Below, piece by piece: positions 14,543 through 23,211 of a DNA stretch of 23,211 bases (the stretch's first letter is position 1; each line of letters opens with the position of its first letter). This DNA comes from a virus (Duplodnaviria; Heunggongvirae; Uroviricota; Caudoviricetes). A model generated the notes under the pieces. It did no database searches. It was not told the DNA's origin and saw only the letters and a list, made by a program, of their open reading frames with translations. Both the position numbers and the translations under genes were made by a program. The stretch lies in the IMG/VR virus record IMGVR_UViG_2563366999_000003, positions 1 through 23,211 of that record; one strand, given 5' to 3'.

Positions 14543-15081
14543 AAACGGGGGCTGAAGCCATCCGGGCGCTGGCCACACAGCTTCCGTCGTTTCGCCAGAA
14601 ACTGAATGAGGGCTGGTATCAGGTACGGATTGCCGGGCGTGATGCAGGCGAAAATGAATTATCTGCCCGTCTTAATGAACCGCTGGCAAATGGTGCCGTG
14701 ATCCACATCGTACCGCGTCTTGCGGGAGCAAAAAGTGGCGGTGTGTTTCAGGCGGTGCTGGGTGCGGCGTTGATTGCTACGGCAATCTGGATGCCGGGGA
14801 TCAGTATCGCTTTCAGTGACATTCTCTTTTCAATGGGTGCGGCGATGACGCTTGGCGGTGTTGCACAGATGCTGGCACCGAAAGCGAGTACCGCAACAAC
14901 GACCAGCACGGATAACGGAAAGCAGAACACCTATTTCTCATCACTGGATAACATGGTTGCCCAGGGCAATGTTCTGCCCGTTCTGTTCGGTGAAATGCGC
15001 GTGGGGTCACGTGTGGCATCTCAGGAGATCAGTACAGCTGATGAAGGTGATGGTGGTGAAATTGTGGTGATTGGTCGCTGA
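14440..15081 (+). CDS. I: Tail tip assembly protein I (213 aa), ubiquitin-like N-terminus
   Basis: ATG 14440 inside the 3' end of K in another frame (103-nt overlap, as in lambda K/I); MAATHTLPLASPGMARICLYGDLQRFGRRIDLRVKTGAEAIRALATQLP... matches lambda gpI. Confidence 0.92.
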   Translation: MAATHTLPLASPGMARICLYGDLQRFGRRIDLRVKTGAEAIRALATQLPSFRQKLNEGWYQVRIAGRDAGENELSARLNEPLANGAVIHIVPRLAGAKSGGVFQAVLGAALIATAIWMPGISIAFSDILFSMGAAMTLGGVAQMLAPKASTATTTSTDNGKQNTYFSSLDNMVAQGNVLPVLFGEMRVGSRVASQEISTADEGDGGEIVVIGR

Positions 15082-15099
15082 TGGAACATGTTTTATGTG

Positions 15100-15128
15100 A
15101 AACCGCCTGCGGGCGGTTTTGTCGTTTA
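15100..15128 (+). terminator. Hairpin with U-rich tail in I-J intergenic region
   Basis: AAACCGCC-TGCG-GGCGGTTT: exact 8-bp inverted repeat (15100-15107 / 15112-15119) followed by TGTCGTTT. Located 19 nt after the I stop and 14 nt before the J SD. Confidence 0.45.
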
Positions 15129-15141
15129 TGGAGCATGAGGA

Positions 15142-18100
15142 ATGGGTAAAGGCAGCAGTAAGGGGCATACCCCGCGCGAAGCGAAGGACAACCTGAAGTC
15201 CACGCAGTTGCTGAGTGTGATCGATGCCATCAGCGAAGGGCCGATTGAAGGTCCGGTGGATGGGTTAAAAAGCGTGCTGCTGAACAGTACGCCGGTGCTG
15301 GACAGTGAGGGGAATACCAATATCTCCGGCGTCACGGTGGTGTTCCGGGCAGGTGAGCAGGAGCAGACTCCGCCGGAGGGATTTGAATCCTCCGGTTCCG
15401 AGACGGTGCTGGGTACGGAAGTGAAATATGACACGCCGATCACCCGCACCATCACGTCTGCAAATATCGACCGTCTGCGCTTTACCTTCGGTGTGCAGGC
15501 ACTGGTGGAAACCACCTCAAAAGGGGATCGGAATCCGTCGGAAGTCCGCCTGCTGGTTCAGATACAGCGTAACGGTGGCTGGGTGACGGAAAAAGACATC
15601 ACCATTAAGGGCAAAACCACCTCGCAGTATCTGGCCTCGGTGGTGGTGGATAACCTGCCGCCGCGCCCGTTCAGTATCCGGATGCGCAGGATGACACCGG
15701 ACAGCACCACAGACCAGCTGCAGAACAAAACGCTCTGGTCGTCATACACCGAAATCATCGATGTGAAACAGTGCTACCCGAACACGGCACTGGTTGGCGT
15801 ACAGGTGGACTCAGAGCAGTTCGGCAGTCAGCAGGTGAGCCGTAATTATCATCTGCGCGGGCGTATTCTGCAGGTGCCGTCGAACTATAACCCGCAGACG
15901 CGGCAATACAGCGGTATCTGGGACGGAACGTTTAAGCCAGCATACAGCAATAACATGGCCTGGTGTCTGTGGGATATGCTGACCCATCCACGCTACGGCA
16001 TGGGGAAACGTCTTGGTGCGGCGGATGTGGACAAATGGGCGCTGTATGTCATCGGCCAGTACTGCGACCAGTCAGTGCCGGACGGCTTTGGCGGCACGGA
16101 GCCGCGCATCACCTGTAATGCGTACCTGACCACACAGCGCAAGGCGTGGGATGTGCTCAGTGATTTCTGCTCGGCGATGCGCTGTATGCCGGTATGGAAC
16201 GGGCAGACGCTGACGTTCGTGCAGGACCGGCCGTCGGATAAGGTGTGGACCTATAACCGCAGTAATGTGGTGATGCCGGATGATGGCGCGCCGTTCCGCT
16301 ACAGCTTCAGCGCCCTGAAGGACCGCCATAATGCCGTTGAGGTGAACTGGATTGACCCGAACAACGGCTGGGAGACGGCGACAGAGCTTGTTGAAGATAC
16401 GCAGGCCATTGCCCGTTACGGTCGTAATGTCACGAAGATGGATGCCTTTGGCTGTACCAGTCGGGGGCAGGCACACCGAGCCGGGCTGTGGCTGATTAAA
16501 ACGGAACTGCTGGAAACGCAGACCGTGGATTTCAGCGTGGGCGCAGAAGGGCTTCGCCATGTGCCGGGCGATGTTATTGAAATCTGCGATGATGACTATG
16601 CGGGTATCAGCACCGGCGGGCGCGTGCTGGCGGTGAACAGCCAGACCCGGACGCTGACGCTCGACCGTGAAATCACGCTGCCATCCTCCGGTACCACGCT
16701 GATAAGCCTGGTTGACGGAAGCGGCAATCCGGTCAGCGTGGAGGTCCAGTCCGTCACCGACGGCGTGAAGGTAAAAGTGAGCCGTGTTCCTGACGGCGTT
16801 GCAGAATACAGCGTGTGGGGGCTGAAGCTGCCGACGCTGCGCCAGCGCCTGTTCCGCTGTGTGAGTATCCGTGAGAACGATGACGGCACGTATGCCATCA
16901 CTGCCGTGCAGCATGTACCGGAAAAAGAAGCCATCGTGGATAACGGGGCGCACTTTGACGGCGACCAGAGCGGCACGGTGAATGGTGTCACGCCGCCAGC
17001 GGTACAGCACCTGACCGCAGAAGTCACCGCAGACAGCGGGGAATACCAGGTGCTGGCGCGCTGGGACACGCCGAAGGTGGTGAAGGGCGTGAGCTTTATG
17101 CTTCGCCTGACCGTGGCAGCGGATGACGGCAGTGAGCGGCTGGTCAGCACGGTCCGGACGACGGAAACCACATACCGCTTCAGGCAGCTGGCGCTGGGAA
17201 ACTACAGGCTGACAGTCCGGGCGGTAAATGCGTGGGGACAGCAGGGCGATCCGGCGTCGGTATCGTTCCGGATTGCCGCCCCGGCAGCGCCGTCACAGAT
17301 TGAGCTGACGCCGGGCTATTTTCAGATAACCGCCACGCCGCATCTTGCGGTTTATGATCCGACGGTACAGTTTGAGTTCTGGTTTTCTGAAACGAAGATT
17401 TCAGATGTCTCACAGGTGGACAAATCTGCCCGCTATCTTGGTACGGCACTGTACTGGGTAGCCTCCGGCCAGAATATTAAGCCGGGCCATGATTATTATT
17501 TTTATATCCGCAGTGTGAATACCATTGGTAAATCGGCATTCGTGGAGGCTGTCGGCCAGCCGGGTAATAATCCTGAAGAGTATCTCAATTTTTTTGAAGG
17601 GAAAATAAACAGCACCCTGCTGGGGCAGGAGCTGAATGATCGTATTAATGCCTCTGCATTGCGCAGTGAAGTTGAGCAACTGGAGGATGAGGTCAATCAG
17701 CGACTGGAGAGTGATATTGCCGAGGTGACCCAAAAAATCGGGGAAACTGAAAACAGCCTCACGCAGCTGGTTGCTAAAAAAAATGATGAGCAGTCACTGG
17801 CCATATCCCAGGTGAGTCAGAAAGTGGACAACGTCAGTAGCGAACTCACGCAAACGGTCAGTCAGAGTAATGAGGAGAATGCACGCCAGATAGCGCAGGT
17901 TCGTCAGTATGTGGATGAAAAAAGCAGTGAAATCATCTCGACGACAGACAAAAAACTGGGCGAGCAGGAAGCAACAATCCAGCAGATACAAAAGGTTCAG
18001 ACAGACACCAGTAATAACCTGAACAGTATGTGGGCCGTGAAACTGCAGCAGATGCAGGATGGTCGCCTTTACATTGCGGGTATCGGTGCCGGTATTGAGA

Positions 18101-18843
18101 ATACCCCTGACGGTATGCAGAGTCAGGTGCTGCTGGCGGCAGACAGGATTGCGTTCATTAATCCGGAGAACGGTAACACCACTCCAGCACTGGTCACGCA
18201 GGGGGGACAGACGTTTCTCAATGAAGCGCTGATTAAGACCCTTATTGCTCCCACAATTACCAGTGGTGGCAATCCTCCGGCATTTTCCCTGACATCAGAC
18301 GGAAAGCTGACCGCTAAAAATGCGGATATCAGTGGCAGTGTGAATGCGAACTCAGGGACGCTCAACAACGTCACGATAAATGAGAACTGTCAGATTAAGG
18401 GGAAACTGTCCGCCAACCAGATTGAAGGCGATATTGTCAAAACGGTCAGCAAGTCTTTCCCCCGCACGAGCACTTATGCCAGCGGCACCATTACGGTCAC
18501 GATTAGTGATGATCAGAAGTTTGACCGACAGGTCATGATCCCGGCTCTGCTGTTTAAAGGAAGCAGGAAGGAAAATTATGGCAGTAATAATCAACAGTCT
18601 TATGTTTATTCTGTATGCCGTTTGCAGGTAACGAAAAACGGGACAGAAATTTTTAACCAGTCAACAACGGATGCTCCGGCGGTTTTTTCTTCCGTTATTG
18701 ATATGCCTGCGGGGCAGGGAACGTTGACGTTAAAGTTTACGGTCTCTTCTTCAATGGTCAATAACTGGACACCGACAACCAGTATCAGCGATTTGCTTGT
18801 TGTGGTGATGAAGAAATCCACCGCAGGTATCACGATTAGCTGA
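15142..18843 (+). CDS. J: Central tail fibre / host specificity protein J (1233 aa)
   Basis: ATG 15142 preceded by GAGG; N-terminal and central parts ([42 protein letters not shown]...) match lambda gpJ. The product is about 100 aa longer than I recall for lambda J, with an extended coiled-coil segment and a divergent C-terminal region. Confidence 0.95.
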
Positions 18844-18861
18844 ATTTTATAACCCATATAC

Positions 18862-18889
18862 GGGCGCCAGAAATGGCGCCTTTTTTATT
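18862..18889 (+). terminator. Intrinsic terminator downstream of J (tJ-like)
   Basis: GGCGCC-AGAAAT-GGCGCC (self-complementary 6-bp GC stem, 18863-18868 / 18875-18880) followed directly by TTTTTTATT (18881-18889). Confidence 0.7.
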
Positions 18890-18910
18890 GCAGAAAAGCG
18901 AGAGGTAATT

Positions 18911-19510
18911 ATGCGTAAATTATGTGCTGTTATTCTGTCCGCAGTAGTCTGGCTGGTTGCCGCTGGTACGCCAGCGAGCGCAGCAGAGCATCAGTCCACA
19001 CTAAGCGCCGGGTATCTTCAGACCCATACTGATATGCCAGGCAGCGATGACCTGAAGGGCATTAACGTGAAATACCGTTATGAATTTACGGACACGCTGG
19101 GGCTGGTGACGTCATTCAGCTATGCAGGAGACAAGAATCGCCAGCTGACCCGTTACAGCGATACCCGCTGGCATGAAGATTCCGTGCGTAACCGCTGGTT
19201 CAGCGTGATGGCGGGTCCGTCTGTACGCGTGAATGAATGGTTCAGTGCGTATGCGATGGCGGGTGTGGCTTACAGCCGTGTGTCGACCTTCTCCGGGGAT
19301 TATCTGCAGGTGACCGACAGCAAGGGGAAAACGCACGATGTGCTGACCGGAAGTGATGACGCTCGCCACAGTAACACCTCTATGGCGTGGGGAGCTGGCG
19401 TGCAGTTTAACCCGACCGAATCGGTGGCCATTGATGTCGCTTATGAAGGTTCCGGCAGTGGCGACTGGCGCACTGACAGTTTCATCGTAGGTGTCGGTTA
19501 TAAATTCTGA
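18911..19510 (+). CDS. lom: Lom outer-membrane protein (Ail/Lom/OmpX/PagC family beta-barrel), lysogenic-conversion moron
   Basis: ATG 18911 preceded by GAGAGG; signal peptide MRKLCAVILSAVVWLVAAGTPASA followed by AEHQSTLSAGY...; ends with the typical C-terminal aromatic beta-strand (VGVGYKF). Matches lambda Lom. Confidence 0.93.
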   Translation: MRKLCAVILSAVVWLVAAGTPASAAEHQSTLSAGYLQTHTDMPGSDDLKGINVKYRYEFTDTLGLVTSFSYAGDKNRQLTRYSDTRWHEDSVRNRWFSVMAGPSVRVNEWFSAYAMAGVAYSRVSTFSGDYLQVTDSKGKTHDVLTGSDDARHSNTSMAWGAGVQFNPTESVAIDVAYEGSGSGDWRTDSFIVGVGYKF

Positions 19511-19530
19511 TTAGTAGTACAGCGTGATGA

Positions 19531-19558
19531 AAGCCCGCCGGTTCAGGCGGGCTTTTTT
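19531..19558 (+). terminator. Intrinsic terminator downstream of lom
   Basis: GCCCGCC-GGTTCA-GGCGGGC (7-bp GC-rich stem 19533-19539 / 19546-19552) followed by TTTTTT (19553-19558), 21 nt after the lom stop. Confidence 0.75.
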
Positions 19559-19569
19559 GTGGGGTGAAT

Positions 19570-22500
19570 ATGACGGTTAAGATTTCAGGTGTACTGAAAG
19601 ATGGAGCAGGCAAACCGGTACAAAACTGCACCATTCAGCTAAAGGCCAGACGCAACAGCACCACGGTGGTGGTGAACACGGTGGCCTCAGAAAATCCGGA
19701 TGAAGCCGGGCGTTATAGTATGGACGTTGAGTATGGCCAGTACAGCGTCACCCTGCTGGTTGAAGGTTTTCCGCCTTCGCATGCCGGGACCATCACAGTG
19801 TATGAGGATTCAAAGCCGGGTACGCTGAATGATTTTCTCGGCGCAATGACGGAGGATGATGCCCGTCCGGAGGCACTGCGCCGTTTTGAACTGATGGTGG
19901 AAGAGGTGGCGCGTAACGCGTCCGCAGTGGCACAGAATGCGGAAGCCGCGAAGAAGTCAGCCAGCGATGCCAGCACATCTGCCAGTGAGGCGGAAACCCA
20001 TGCGACTGATGCTGCAGACTCAGCACGCGCAGCCAGCACGTCAGCCGGACAGGCTGCATCATCTGCTCAGTCAGCATCTTCCAGCGCAGGAACAGCATCA
20101 ACAAAGGCCACTGAAGCCTCAAAAAGTGCTGCCGCTGCAGAGTCCTCAAAAAGTGCGGCGGCCACCAGTGCCAGTGCCGCGAAAACGTCAGAAACGAACG
20201 CGGCAGCGTCACAACAATCCGCAGCCACCTCAGCATCCACCGCGACCACGAAAGCGTCAGACGCTGCCACCTCAGCCCGGGATGCGGCGGCTTCAAAAGA
20301 GGCGGCAAAATCATCAGAAACGAGCGCAGCCTCGAGCGCCAGTAGTGCAGCTTCCTCGGCTACGGCGGCAGGAAATTCCGCGAAGGCGGCAAAAACGTCC
20401 GAGACGAACGCCAGGGCTTCTGAAACGGCAGCGGAACAGAGTGCCTCCGCAGCAGCAGACTCAAAAACAGCGGCTGCGTCGTCTGCCAGTGCCGCGTCAA
20501 CAAGTGCCGGGCAGGCCTCAGCCAGTGCCACCGCCGCCGGGAAATCGGCGGAAAGCGCGTCGTCATCAGCGACAACAGCTACCGCAAAAGCGACTGAGGC
20601 GACGAATCAGGCTACAGCTGCTAAAAATTCAGCATCGGCAGCAAAATCCTCTGAAACAAATGCAAAGACTTCAGAAGACAATGCCGCTTCCTCTAAGGCG
20701 GCAGCTGCTGAATCTGCAAGTTCTGCGTCTGCATCAGCCACCTCGGCGTCCGCTTCAAAAGATGAGGCGATCAGGCAGGCGTCAGCTGCGAAGGGTAGTG
20801 CTTCAACGGCATCCACGAAAGCAACAGAGGCGGCAGGCAGTGCGACGGCTGCATCTCAGAGCAAAACTGCTGCTGAATCCGCTGCGACCCGTGCGGAAGC
20901 TGCTGCTGATCGTGCTGAAGAGATTGCCGGTGCGGTTGCGATGGAAGACGCAAGCCTTACCACTAAAGGTGTTGTGAAACTTAGCAGTGCTGTCGACAGC
21001 ACCAGTGAATCGCTGGCCGCAACGCCAAAGGCAGTTAAAGCAGTCAATGACAATGCGAACAGCAGGGTGCCATCTGACCGAAAAATTAACGGGAAAGCAC
21101 TGACTGGGGATATCACATTAACGCCGAAAGATATTGGTACTTTAAATTCAGTAACGATGTCTTTCTCTGGCGGGGCTGGGTGGTTCAAACTGGCTACGGT
21201 TACCATGCCACAAGCGAGTTCCATCGTTTACATCACATTGATTGGTGGTGCCGGATACAACGTCGGCTCCCCACAGCAGGCAGGTATTTCAGAACTGGTT
21301 CTACGAGCAGGCAATGGAAACCCCAAAGGGATTACCGGAGCTTTGTGGAAGCGTACAGCCGTCGGATTAACGAATTTCGCCTGGATCAACACATCCGGCG
21401 ATACATATGATATTTACGTTGAGACTGGCAATTATGCGACGAGTGTAAATATCCATTGGGATTGTACTGCAAATGCGTCAGTTTCTGTTTATACATCGCC
21501 AGCCTATTCAGCGAGTAAGCCTTCCGGCGTTACCGATGGTGTTGTTTATACGATGTATAGCTCACATCAGAAACCTACACCATCAGATATTGGAGCACTG
21601 CCAACAACCGGAGGAACAGTTTCAGGTCCGTTGTCTGTTACTGGTGGGATCACCGGGGCACTGAAGGGGAACGCCGATACCGCGACGAAACTTGCGGCAG
21701 CCAAAAAAATTAACGGTGTTAAGTTTGATGGCTCGGCGGATATTAATCTCACGCCGGAAAATATTGGTGCATTTGCCCTACGTGCGACGGGGGCTTATGC
21801 GGATTCGGATGGAGCCGTTCCGTGGAATGCTGAATCCGGTGCATATAATGTCACGCGTTCTGGCGACTCCTGTCTTGTTGCAAACTTTTATACCGGTGTG
21901 GGGAGTTGCCAGACTCTCCAGATTCGCGCTCATTACAAGAATGGCGGTCTGTTTTACCGTTCTTCGCGTGATGGTTATGGCTTTGAGGAAGACTGGACTC
22001 AGATTTATACCAAAAAAGACAGCATTCCGGGAGTAAATACGACAGGTAACCAGAACACTACGGGTAATGCGGCAACAGCTACAAAACTACAGACGGCAAG
22101 AACTATCGGCGGTGTGAGCTTTGATGGTACTGCGAATATTAACTTGCCTGGTGTTAATACGACTGGTAACCAGAGCACTACAGGCAATGCAGCTACTGCC
22201 ACGAAGTTGCAGACAGCGCGTACTATTAATGGCGTGTCGTTTGACGGTTCGGCAAATATTTCTCTGTCACCAGCAAATATTGGTTGCCCGGCATCTCCAA
22301 CTGGCTGGTTAGGCACAGGGAGTAATGGTGCATCAATAACAACGGCTCAGTTAGTGACGATATTGCAGAATAATGGTGCCTTCAATACAAAAGCATGGGT
22401 GGCACGCTGTGCCTGGGCATACGCTGACAGCGCCTCCATACCAGACAGTGAAACAGGCTGCGGCATTATTCCACTGGCGGGGGCGGTGATAGAAGTATTC

Positions 22501-23211
22501 AGCCACAGTGCAACTTATTACACCATTCGAATAACAACAGCCACGACGACAAGTGTCTCTGGCGCACTCACTAATGCGGAATTTATCTATGTGTTTAATG
22601 GCACAGCTTATTCCCCCGGATGGCGTCGTGCACTGAACACAAAGAAACTGCCCACACCGCTTGAAATTGGCGCTTACAGCATATCGGAGATTAACCAACT
22701 CAATAAAAGTTTTATCACGTCATCAAAACTCGAAGGCGGCTCGTTAGATGCAAACTTCCAGACGTTAAGTTGTTATTATTTGCAAATATTCGACATTCAG
22801 ACAACAACCGATAGTCCTAACATGTTCGTAAGTCCGGTTGCTGGTTACAACATGGTATTTCGTTCGACTTCATCCCGTCGATACAAGACGGATATCGAGT
22901 CTTTAGAGAACAGGTACGCGGACGAGTTGTTGAAACTTCGTCCTGTATGGTATCGCTCGACTTGTGAAAGGGACAGAAAGGACTGGGGACATTATGGCCT
23001 TATTGCAGAAGAAGTCGGAGAGATAGCACCGCAATATGTTCACTGGCGTCCTCTTACAGACGAGGATGATCCAGGTATAGCGTCTGATAATGGGATGGTT
23101 GCAGAAGGCGTGATGTATGACCGTCTGGTTGTTCCACTCATTCATCATATTCAGAAACTGACAAAAAGGGTTGAGGAGCTTGAAGCAAAGTTAAAGCTAT
23201 CCGAGCTATAA
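19570..23211 (+). CDS. stf: Side tail fibre protein Stf (1213 aa from ATG 19570): lambda-Stf-like N-terminus, Ala/Ser-rich shaft, fibre repeats, divergent distal tip, C-terminal intramolecular-chaperone-like autoprocessing domain
   Basis: N-terminus MTVKISGVLKDGAGKPVQNCTIQLKARRNSTTVVVNTVASENPDEAGRYSMDVEYGQYSV matches lambda Stf. ATG 19570 has GGGG 5 nt upstream; an in-frame GTG at 19564 would add 2 aa. Uninterrupted ORF to the TAA at the last 3 nt of the window. C-terminal about 115 aa resemble endosialidase-type intramolecular chaperone (peptidase S74) domains. Confidence 0.92.
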   Translation: MTVKISGVLKDGAGKPVQNCTIQLKARRNSTTVVVNTVASENPDEAGRYSMDVEYGQYSVTLLVEGFPPSHAGTITVYEDSKPGTLNDFLGAMTEDDARPEALRRFELMVEEVARNASAVAQNAEAAKKSASDASTSASEAETHATDAADSARAASTSAGQAASSAQSASSSAGTASTKATEASKSAAAAESSKSAAATSASAAKTSETNAAASQQSAATSASTATTKASDAATSARDAAASKEAAKSSETSAASSASSAASSATAAGNSAKAAKTSETNARASETAAEQSASAAADSKTAAASSASAASTSAGQASASATAAGKSAESASSSATTATAKATEATNQATAAKNSASAAKSSETNAKTSEDNAASSKAAAAESASSASASATSASASKDEAIRQASAAKGSASTASTKATEAAGSATAASQSKTAAESAATRAEAAADRAEEIAGAVAMEDASLTTKGVVKLSSAVDSTSESLAATPKAVKAVNDNANSRVPSDRKINGKALTGDITLTPKDIGTLNSVTMSFSGGAGWFKLATVTMPQASSIVYITLIGGAGYNVGSPQQAGISELVLRAGNGNPKGITGALWKRTAVGLTNFAWINTSGDTYDIYVETGNYATSVNIHWDCTANASVSVYTSPAYSASKPSGVTDGVVYTMYSSHQKPTPSDIGALPTTGGTVSGPLSVTGGITGALKGNADTATKLAAAKKINGVKFDGSADINLTPENIGAFALRATGAYADSDGAVPWNAESGAYNVTRSGDSCLVANFYTGVGSCQTLQIRAHYKNGGLFYRSSRDGYGFEEDWTQIYTKKDSIPGVNTTGNQNTTGNAATATKLQTARTIGGVSFDGTANINLPGVNTTGNQSTTGNAATATKLQTARTINGVSFDGSANISLSPANIGCPASPTGWLGTGSNGASITTAQLVTILQNNGAFNTKAWVARCAWAYADSASIPDSETGCGIIPLAGAVIEVFSHSATYYTIRITTATTTSVSGALTNAEFIYVFNGTAYSPGWRRALNTKKLPTPLEIGAYSISEINQLNKSFITSSKLEGGSLDANFQTLSCYYLQIFDIQTTTDSPNMFVSPVAGYNMVFRSTSSRRYKTDIESLENRYADELLKLRPVWYRSTCERDRKDWGHYGLIAEEVGEIAPQYVHWRPLTDEDDPGIASDNGMVAEGVMYDRLVVPLIHHIQKLTKRVEELEAKLKLSEL
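19915..20930 (+). repeat. Low-complexity Ala/Ser/Thr/Lys-rich periodic region of stf (predicted helical shaft)
   Basis: About 340 codons dominated by A, S, T, K, E. The motif AAK(T/S)SET(N/S)A recurs with its K codon at 20182, 20308, 20392 and 20644, i.e. spacings of 126, 84 and 252 nt, all multiples of 42 nt (14 codons). Confidence 0.8.
22030..22269 (+). repeat. Two tandem 120-nt (40-codon) tail-fibre repeats within stf
   Basis: Unit 1 22030-22149 (GVNTTGNQNTTGNAATATKLQTARTIGGVSFDGTANINLP) and unit 2 22150-22269 (GVNTTGNQSTTGNAATATKLQTARTINGVSFDGSANISLS). A more degenerate copy lies upstream (GNADTATKLAAAKKINGVKFDGSADINLTPENIGA, about 21660-21780). Confidence 0.9.

Follow-up and report, generated by a model that had tools for sequence, protein, structure and literature searches.

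The stretch of DNA analysed here (hereafter the window; 23,211 nucleotides, positions 1 to 23,211 of the IMG/VR virus record IMGVR_UViG_2563366999_000003, from a virus of the Caudoviricetes) is the left arm of a lambda-like prophage. Its gene J encodes the tip attachment or central tail fibre protein (15142..18843, plus strand, as are all features below unless stated otherwise), with an intact product of 1233 residues according to the open reading frame (ORF) list, the translation and Pfam. The α-helical shaft (AHS) of this protein is about three times as long as that of lambda gpJ (~154 versus 53 residues), and it is an array of diverged 29-residue repeats, of which the window J has four copies. 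We consider it likely that the enlarged segment is the AHS of J in a long allele, with the extra repeats serving as a rigid spacer.

The expansion lies between two conserved blocks, an upstream one at aa 813 (nt 17578) and the MWAVK motif at aa 963 (nt 18028), which are separated by 139 residues in the window J and by ~38 in lambda J. Counted between the end of the YL..I motif and MWAVK, the distance is 39 residues in lambda, 67 in phage 21 and 140 in the window J. The 139-residue segment is rich in glutamine (18), serine (17) and glutamate (17), and contains no proline and three glycines. In a four-way MAFFT alignment of J from the window, lambda, Chlobot and phage 21 the large gaps are confined to the shaft interval. 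Because small indels in the receptor-binding domain cancel each other, the 101-residue excess equals the entire net difference from lambda J, which is 3399 nt and 1132 aa long in NC_001416. An earlier sequence-only reading of the window had anticipated much of this: it gave J 1233 residues, placed in it a Glu/Gln/Ser-rich segment of about 140 residues at accurate coordinates (the peptide it quoted is present as written), put lambda J at about 1132 residues with a linker of a few dozen (39 in NC_001416), and ascribed most of the length difference to the segment. Pairwise alignment with lambda gpJ bears it out, in that lambda has no segment of equivalent length (39 versus 140).

The location of the segment identifies it. 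Residues 1-837 of the window J align with residues 1-837 of lambda gpJ, and two consecutive FNIII/Ig domains precede the shaft (Pfam Ig_J, aa 610-714, E = 6e-42; Ig_J_second, aa 716-818, E = 3.3e-38), with the β prism on its other side (Phage_Tail_Tip, aa 945-1073, E = 1.8e-30). In lambda the AHS (residues 809-861) is a three-helix bundle situated under the FNIII-2 domains and above the β prism (PMC11101478). Since the window segment is flanked by Ig_J_second (to aa 818) and Phage_Tail_Tip (from aa 945) and has lambda-like ends, aligning to lambda 813-837 and 843-862, it represents an expanded AHS: aa 811-964, ~154 residues (17572..18033), the counterpart of lambda gpJ 809-861. Its N-terminal end (aa 811-838; 17572..17655) is conserved with lambda in the phmmer alignment. 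Adjoining this is a 15-residue helical stretch (aa 837-851; 17650..17694) with no counterpart in phage 21-type J proteins, which have the Gly/Pro-containing NGQLAPD in its place (MAFFT; the placement of this gap and of those inside the repeats is approximate). An AlphaFold2 monomer model of aa 790-1000 has helix over aa 811-964, unbroken over 839-964 with a predicted local distance difference test score (pLDDT) of 87-97; the shaft is thus predicted to be helical. The earlier expectation that the segment would lengthen the central tail fibre is a fair one, as the segment lies in the fibre-shaft domain of lambda (PMC11101478).

Internally, the shaft is built of 29-residue units that stack in register from I859, I888, I917 and I946. 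Repeat 1 (aa 859-887; 17716..17802), defined by lag-29 self-similarity and the repeat stack, is identical to repeat 2 (aa 888-916; 17803..17889) at 10 of 29 positions; repeat 2 shares 11 of 29 with repeat 3 (aa 917-945; 17890..17976), which is recovered by the same two criteria; and repeat 4 (aa 946-974; 17977..18063) crosses the junction of the helix and the β prism and is homologous to lambda 845-873. When the window J is shifted against itself and scored with BLOSUM62, lag 29 gives z-scores of 7.3-8.0 and lag 58 of 4.3-4.6, the highest value in 500-1000 shuffles being 4.4. The signal recurs in a long allele 69% identical to that of the window, from phage PhiR49_2 (z = 6.7 at lag 29), and in the J of the E. 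coli LH50-c prophage (z = 12.6 at lag 58). A search for direct and tandem repeats in the DNA of 17400-18200 returned nothing meaningful, the repeats being visible at the protein level only, and the copies in the window allele must therefore be old. In the searchable literature we found no description of the 29-residue unit, of the 29/8 periodicity presented below or of discrete classes with 1, 2, 4, 6 and 7 repeats. The repeat structure is hence a modest new description, and long-shaft J genes themselves are already in the databases, annotated as gpJ.

The hydrophobic periodicity of the segment peaks at 3.62-3.64 residues, that is 29/8, with a power (2.3-2.4) that was matched in 0 of 2000 shuffles; at 3.5 residues the power is 0.07-0.22. 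Each unit has eight core positions in the pattern 7+11+11, giving 3.63 residues per turn. The 17 copies stacked from five J proteins have a hydrophobic residue at positions 1, 4 and 15 without exception, at position 19 in 82% of cases and at position 8 in 76%. A canonical heptad coiled coil, which would have a period of 3.5 instead of 3.63, can be rejected; of the heptad-like coiled coil proposed earlier the helical part stands, given the AlphaFold2 helix over aa 811-964, and the heptad part does not. The observed period is close to that of an undistorted helix and so predicts an almost straight bundle of helices rather than a supercoiled coiled coil.

The long shaft is one of several natural lengths. 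We surveyed 131 loci drawn from lambda, annotated phages, one genome per species and IMG/VR. In these the shaft falls into discrete length classes: 97 loci have an inner length of 39, 67 or 140 residues, and there are long alleles with other anchor sequences besides. Together with the six- and seven-repeat alleles described below, the J length variants, of which the sequence-only reading had called for a survey, form classes of 1, 2, 4, 6 and 7 repeats. Frequencies were determined in 5426 complete E. coli genomes at a query cover of at least 80%: the lambda type with one repeat is present in 2561 genomes, the phage 21 type with two in 3550, the PhiR49_2 long allele with four in 724, the window long allele, also with four, in 35, and the LH50-c type with six in 23. 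Long-shaft alleles accordingly occur in at least 750 of the 5426, and the long shaft is a minority but ordinary form, a common natural length variant among E. coli prophages. The six-repeat J of LH50-c differs from the window J by 58 additional residues and an 11-residue insert. A partial J of 538 residues (P0112) has a seven-repeat shaft with a perfect tandem copy of one 29-mer (IAEVTKKITASENSITELVAKKSGEQSLA twice), which points to a recent duplication of 87 nt and indicates that the repeat number is still changing.

Two observations from these surveys concern individual J loci. The LH50-c J (NZ_CP100500, L132:2089-6520, 1169 aa) lacks the Ig_GpJ_C domain and ends soon after the prism (…VYDDNNVLRVRLGRL); it is followed by two ORFs without a Pfam match, and lom is absent there. 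Receptor binding in this prophage may reside on a separate protein, as in T5. An apparently very long J on an IMG/VR contig (L071:763-6405) turned out to be a local duplication of the J-lom junction: a normal J of 1159 aa is followed by lom, a duplicated 3' fragment of J, which forms a 241-aa ORF, and a second lom.

In a set of 85 more distant J-like proteins, taken from a 50%-identity representative library that is dominated by fragments and was used for this measurement only, FNIII-2 is separated from the prism by anything from 46 to more than 600 proline-free residues. Several of them (P0222, P0225, P0242 and others, 1370-1598 aa) have 423-615 proline-free residues in this interval with a hydrophobic period of ~3.555, and are very long shafts on another repeat scheme.

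The four-repeat form is not a recent acquisition. The window and PhiR49_2 long alleles differ by a synonymous divergence (dS) of ~1.5, which is saturated, and the ratio of non-synonymous to synonymous divergence (dN/dS) is 0.12 for the AHS as a whole and 0.084 for the repeats. The saturation at synonymous sites implies that the four-repeat form is old, and a recent event is not supported. Its exact length has been retained, and the form is under purifying selection.

What such a shaft would do can be framed by the structures of lambda gpJ. There, the shaft keeps the tail tip closed, and its N-terminal end lies beneath the three FNIII-2 domains and keeps them joined; upon binding of LamB the AHS flips by ~180 degrees, residues 809-840 become a shorter helix and 841-861 become β strands atop the prism, and this remodelling frees the FNIII domains and opens the tube (PMC11101478). 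By analogy, the N-terminal end of the window shaft would hold the FNIII-2 domains in the same manner, and the long shaft is assumed to form a three-helix bundle in the J trimer. The extra 101 residues, situated between conserved shaft ends, would then form a rigid spacer. With 0.15 nm for each helical residue, the shaft would measure ~23 nm as against 8 nm in lambda, adding ~15 nm. The distance from the FNIII domains to the tip, 29.7 nm in lambda (PMC11101478), would grow from ~30 to ~45 nm, placing the receptor-binding domain further from the tail tube. Given that the FNIII-2 end and the last repeat are conserved, receptor-triggered opening is probably lambda-like. Changes in length would come from the gain or loss of 87-nt units and from recombination within the conserved flanks. 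Recombination there would be expected to give the free pairing, seen in the 131-locus survey, of shaft length classes with different prism and receptor-domain clusters. A plausible benefit of a long shaft would be to reach an outer-membrane protein through O-antigen or capsule.

Several points weigh against a rigid spacer. Shaft length shows no tie to receptor-domain type, and a neutral polymorphism would look alike. Opening in lambda needs the 180-degree flip of the shaft (PMC11101478), which a 23-nm shaft would also have to perform. The estimate of 15 nm presupposes an uninterrupted straight helix, whereas the AlphaFold2 helix has short breaks at aa 825 and at 837-838 and the shaft could be kinked at Gly867 and Gly940.

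The first of these leads to the alternative that repeat number is a selectively neutral polymorphism, in which any whole number of 29-residue units is tolerated and copies come and go by slippage or unequal recombination. We regard this as unlikely. In its favour, several shaft lengths coexist at high frequency in E. coli prophages, independently of prism or receptor-domain type, one allele has a perfect recent duplication of a single unit, and the distant J-like proteins span the wide range of gaps noted above. It does not readily accommodate the purifying selection on the repeats, the identity of the four-repeat length in two alleles saturated at synonymous sites, or the dominance of a few discrete classes where a smooth spread would be expected. 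The purifying selection implies that a well-formed helix is required; selection on the length as such does not follow from it.

A further possibility, which we hold to be doubtful, assigns the units a more active part: they may be copies of the receptor-triggered, helix-to-β fold-switching element of lambda, and so more than inert spacers. The lambda homologue of repeat 4 (residues 845-873) overlaps the stretch 841-861 that converts from helix to β upon LamB binding. The distance from FNIII to tip in lambda drops from 29.7 to 13.2 nm on opening, a change close to double the 8-nm shaft length and in line with a shaft that folds back. Were this so, a four-repeat shaft would provide ~15 nm of extra reach before binding and then fold back or collapse, bringing the mouth of the tail tube level with the membrane; repeat number would tune how far the fibre reaches through O-antigen or capsule as well as how closely the tail finally approaches.

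Less probable still is a role as a docking platform for side fibres or accessory proteins. Such a role is known from the F2-type pyocin, whose J homologue has an exceptionally long AHS carrying side fibres, three trimers of which bind a glycine kink in the shaft (PMC13455828). That protein (PDB 25vf) is a detectable homologue of the window J, two glycines of which, Gly867 and Gly940, recur in the other long allele. The window Stf, however, has the lambda collar domain, and in Ur-lambda the collar binds the gpV-gpM junction and not the shaft (PMC12617516); furthermore, J has the same neighbours as in short-shaft phages, with K and I before it and lom and stf after it, and no extra candidate partner gene was seen. 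We therefore think docking very unlikely for the window J.

Finally, the insertion by horizontal transfer of a foreign coiled-coil module into a lambda-like J, suggested by the low GC content of the segment (0.469 versus 0.592 in the 5' part of J), is barely credible, because the drop in GC precedes the segment by ~190 nt and extends over the prism and receptor domain, the extra residues are homologous to a unit already present in the J of phage 21 and lambda, and the segment has no match outside J. This last statement rests on a search of 5.8 billion proteins with a 176-aa segment, in which 111 of 111 matches were J fragments from Escherichia or Shigella (all of 308 aa or less, and so unfit for a length survey, for which genomes and viral contigs were used instead), and on a PDB search with the shaft alone, which returned chance-level matches to apolipoprotein and polycystin (E of 0.2 or more).

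The compositional signal has a different source. Up to nt 17391, sliding 90-nt windows are 89-100% identical in DNA to lambda, Chlobot and phage 21 and 82-100% to PhiR49_2; from nt 17392, inside FNIII-2, to the stop codon the identity to all four J genes is ~50-90%. GC content drops at 17300-17400 and does not recover before the end of J: it is 0.592 over 15142-17391, 0.484 over 17392-17577, 0.469 in the segment and 0.488 in the prism and receptor domain (18028-18843). J thus comprises a conserved 5' part, covering the hub, FNIII-1 and the first half of FNIII-2 (15142..17391), and a variable 3' part with a GC content of 0.481 that begins at the mosaic boundary at about aa 751 (17392..18843). 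As low GC runs from this boundary to the end of the gene, it marks the variable 3' third of J (1.45 kb) and not an inserted module. The claim that the segment is AT-richer than its flanks therefore survives in relation to the 5' 2.25 kb and fails against the immediately adjacent sequence upstream (0.484) and downstream (0.488). With it the idea of a module insertion marked by AT-richness gives way to a break in GC and identity at about nt 17392, and that of a foreign origin to copies of the unit found in lambda and phage 21 J.

The remainder of J is that of a complete gpJ, with the full Pfam set of the family (FNIII-A_GpJ, Phage-tail_3, Ig_J, Ig_J_second, Phage_Tail_Tip and Ig_GpJ_C). The hub domains FNIII-A_GpJ and Phage-tail_3 are recovered with E-values of 9.5e-42 and 2.2e-43, and phmmer matches the lambda gpJ chains of 8iyk and related entries with E = 0. 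The central straight fibre, or β prism, occupies aa 965-1073 (18034..18360; Pfam) and matches the lambda chains 8xcj and 8jvm. The C-terminal receptor-binding domain (Ig_GpJ_C, aa 1110-1233, E = 1.8e-34; 18469..18840) is close to that of A8 gpJ, aligning near-identically to PDB 9wca 'A8 gpJ 713' with E = 1.5e-146. A8 gpJ binds OmpC (PMC11338833), and phage 21, with a related receptor domain, uses LamB, one mutation changing this to OmpC. By resemblance to A8, the receptor of the window J may be OmpC or, as for the related phage 21 domain, LamB. Misassembly and a pseudogene are ruled out by the intact ORF, the presence of all domains and the recurrence of the architecture in hundreds of genomes. 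A minus-strand ORF of 107 aa with a TTG start (17410-17733) runs antisense to J and overlaps the beginning of the shaft; Pfam finds nothing in it, and it is most likely spurious. Rfam gave no match on either strand in 15000-19600.

The order of ORFs around J (after L, K and I; before lom and stf) matches that of the lambda, Chlobot, phage 21 and PhiR49_2 loci, the upstream tail genes having been matched by position and size only, lom by Pfam and stf by BLASTP. Downstream of J lies lom, encoding an Ail/Lom outer membrane protein (18911..19510; Pfam Ail_Lom, E = 9.5e-122), followed by the side tail fibre gene stf (19564..23211 in the ORF list), which runs off the window after more than 1215 aa. 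The N-terminal collar domain of its product is 84% identical to the N-terminus of lambda Stf over 160 aa (BLASTP). At more than 1215 aa before the end of the window, Stf is already much longer than lambda Stf. The true start of stf is probably ATG 19570 (MTVKISG) rather than GTG 19564.

In complete E. coli genomes the whole window J has a best match of 97.9%, none being identical, and the J segment is 99.4-99.6% identical to prophages in 12 genomes, including enteropathogenic E. coli (EPEC) E2348/69. The prophage of E. coli 2015C-4136CT1, which has the closest J match, contains downstream of its tail fibre genes an NleG-family type III secretion effector gene (L133:12906-13457) and several fragments of broken tail-fibre genes. 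A group of genome contigs (L009-L050) contains lambda J DNA with the short shaft (best-segment identity of 93-99% to the window J) on short contigs, several of them at ~1-2x coverage, in assemblies of Neobacillus, Kitasatospora, Desulfosporosinus, Leeuwenhoekiella, Pseudomonas, Shewanella, Bradyrhizobium and others. As these organisms are unrelated, the assemblies look to be contaminated with lambda DNA.

The natural series of 1, 2, 4, 6 and 7 units, with conserved ends and free pairing with receptor domains, offers a ready-made test of shaft length in adsorption, triggering and DNA delivery. It also provides a design rule for lambda-based delivery particles, in which the C-terminus of J has already been swapped: shaft length is probably adjustable in 29-residue steps.

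Set against its characterized relatives, the window J belongs to the same family as lambda gpJ (PDB 8iyk, 8xci, 8xcj; Ge and Wang 2024, PMC11101478) and has the same domain order, with ~97% DNA identity over the N-terminal 750 residues and 84% protein identity over the full length. The last 29 lambda residues before and across MWAVK are the homologue of window repeat 4, so that the 53 shaft residues of lambda contain one repeat where the ~154 of the window J contain four. In the lambda shaft no 3.63 periodicity stands out, the highest peak being a weak one at 3.4, and the receptor-binding domain of lambda gpJ is of the LamB type as opposed to the A8/OmpC-like type of the window J. Lambda is thus not representative of the J family in shaft length. 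The phage 21 or Chlobot-type J (1160 aa; 89-91% protein identity) is the commonest class in E. coli prophages and has the same prism and a similar type of receptor domain as the window J. It shares the repeat unit (LAEIRTSI... and IQQIQKV...), having two repeats to the window's four, and is shorter by 73 residues, that is 15+29+29. The J proteins of PhiR49_2 (PV340570) and PhiR40_1 (PV340560), of 1232 aa, have a shaft equal in length to that of the window, with four repeats in the same register. This shaft is 69-71% identical to the window's and constitutes a separate allele, saturated at synonymous sites and commoner in E. coli (724 versus 35 genomes); the prism (MYMLKVQKTKNG...) and the receptor-domain cluster differ from those of the window J. 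GenBank lists both as complete phage genomes with host ECOR13. Our literature search found no paper naming PhiR49_2, and a candidate source paper mentions neither phage; their viability therefore rests on the GenBank records alone.

Extended helical shafts have already been reported in more distant relatives, namely the F2 pyocin (PMC13455828) and T1 gp33 (PMC11945409). PyoF10, the central fibre protein and J homologue of the F2-type pyocin (PDB 25vf; PMC13455828), distant in sequence from the window J yet detectably matching it, has an 'exceptionally long' three-stranded helical shaft reaching from FNIII to a predicted β prism. This shaft is described as a canonical coiled coil, includes an insertion domain and the side-fibre-binding glycine kink, and is not followed by a C-terminal receptor-binding domain. 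The J-like gp33 of phage T1 (PDB 9l9p; PMC11945409) has a C-terminal part, known from AlphaFold3 alone and experimentally unresolved, that is reported to be visibly longer than that of lambda gpJ. It aligns with the window J across shaft and prism (E = 3.7e-8), and its shaft has tandem repeats of 33 residues, or three hendecads (chain S, ~902-1001; ETEALSREIDQLKAQIGDDIQASLTDIREVIAT), compared with 29 in the J of E. coli. Placed among these systems, the long-shaft J of the window is a refinement of a known protein rather than a new system.

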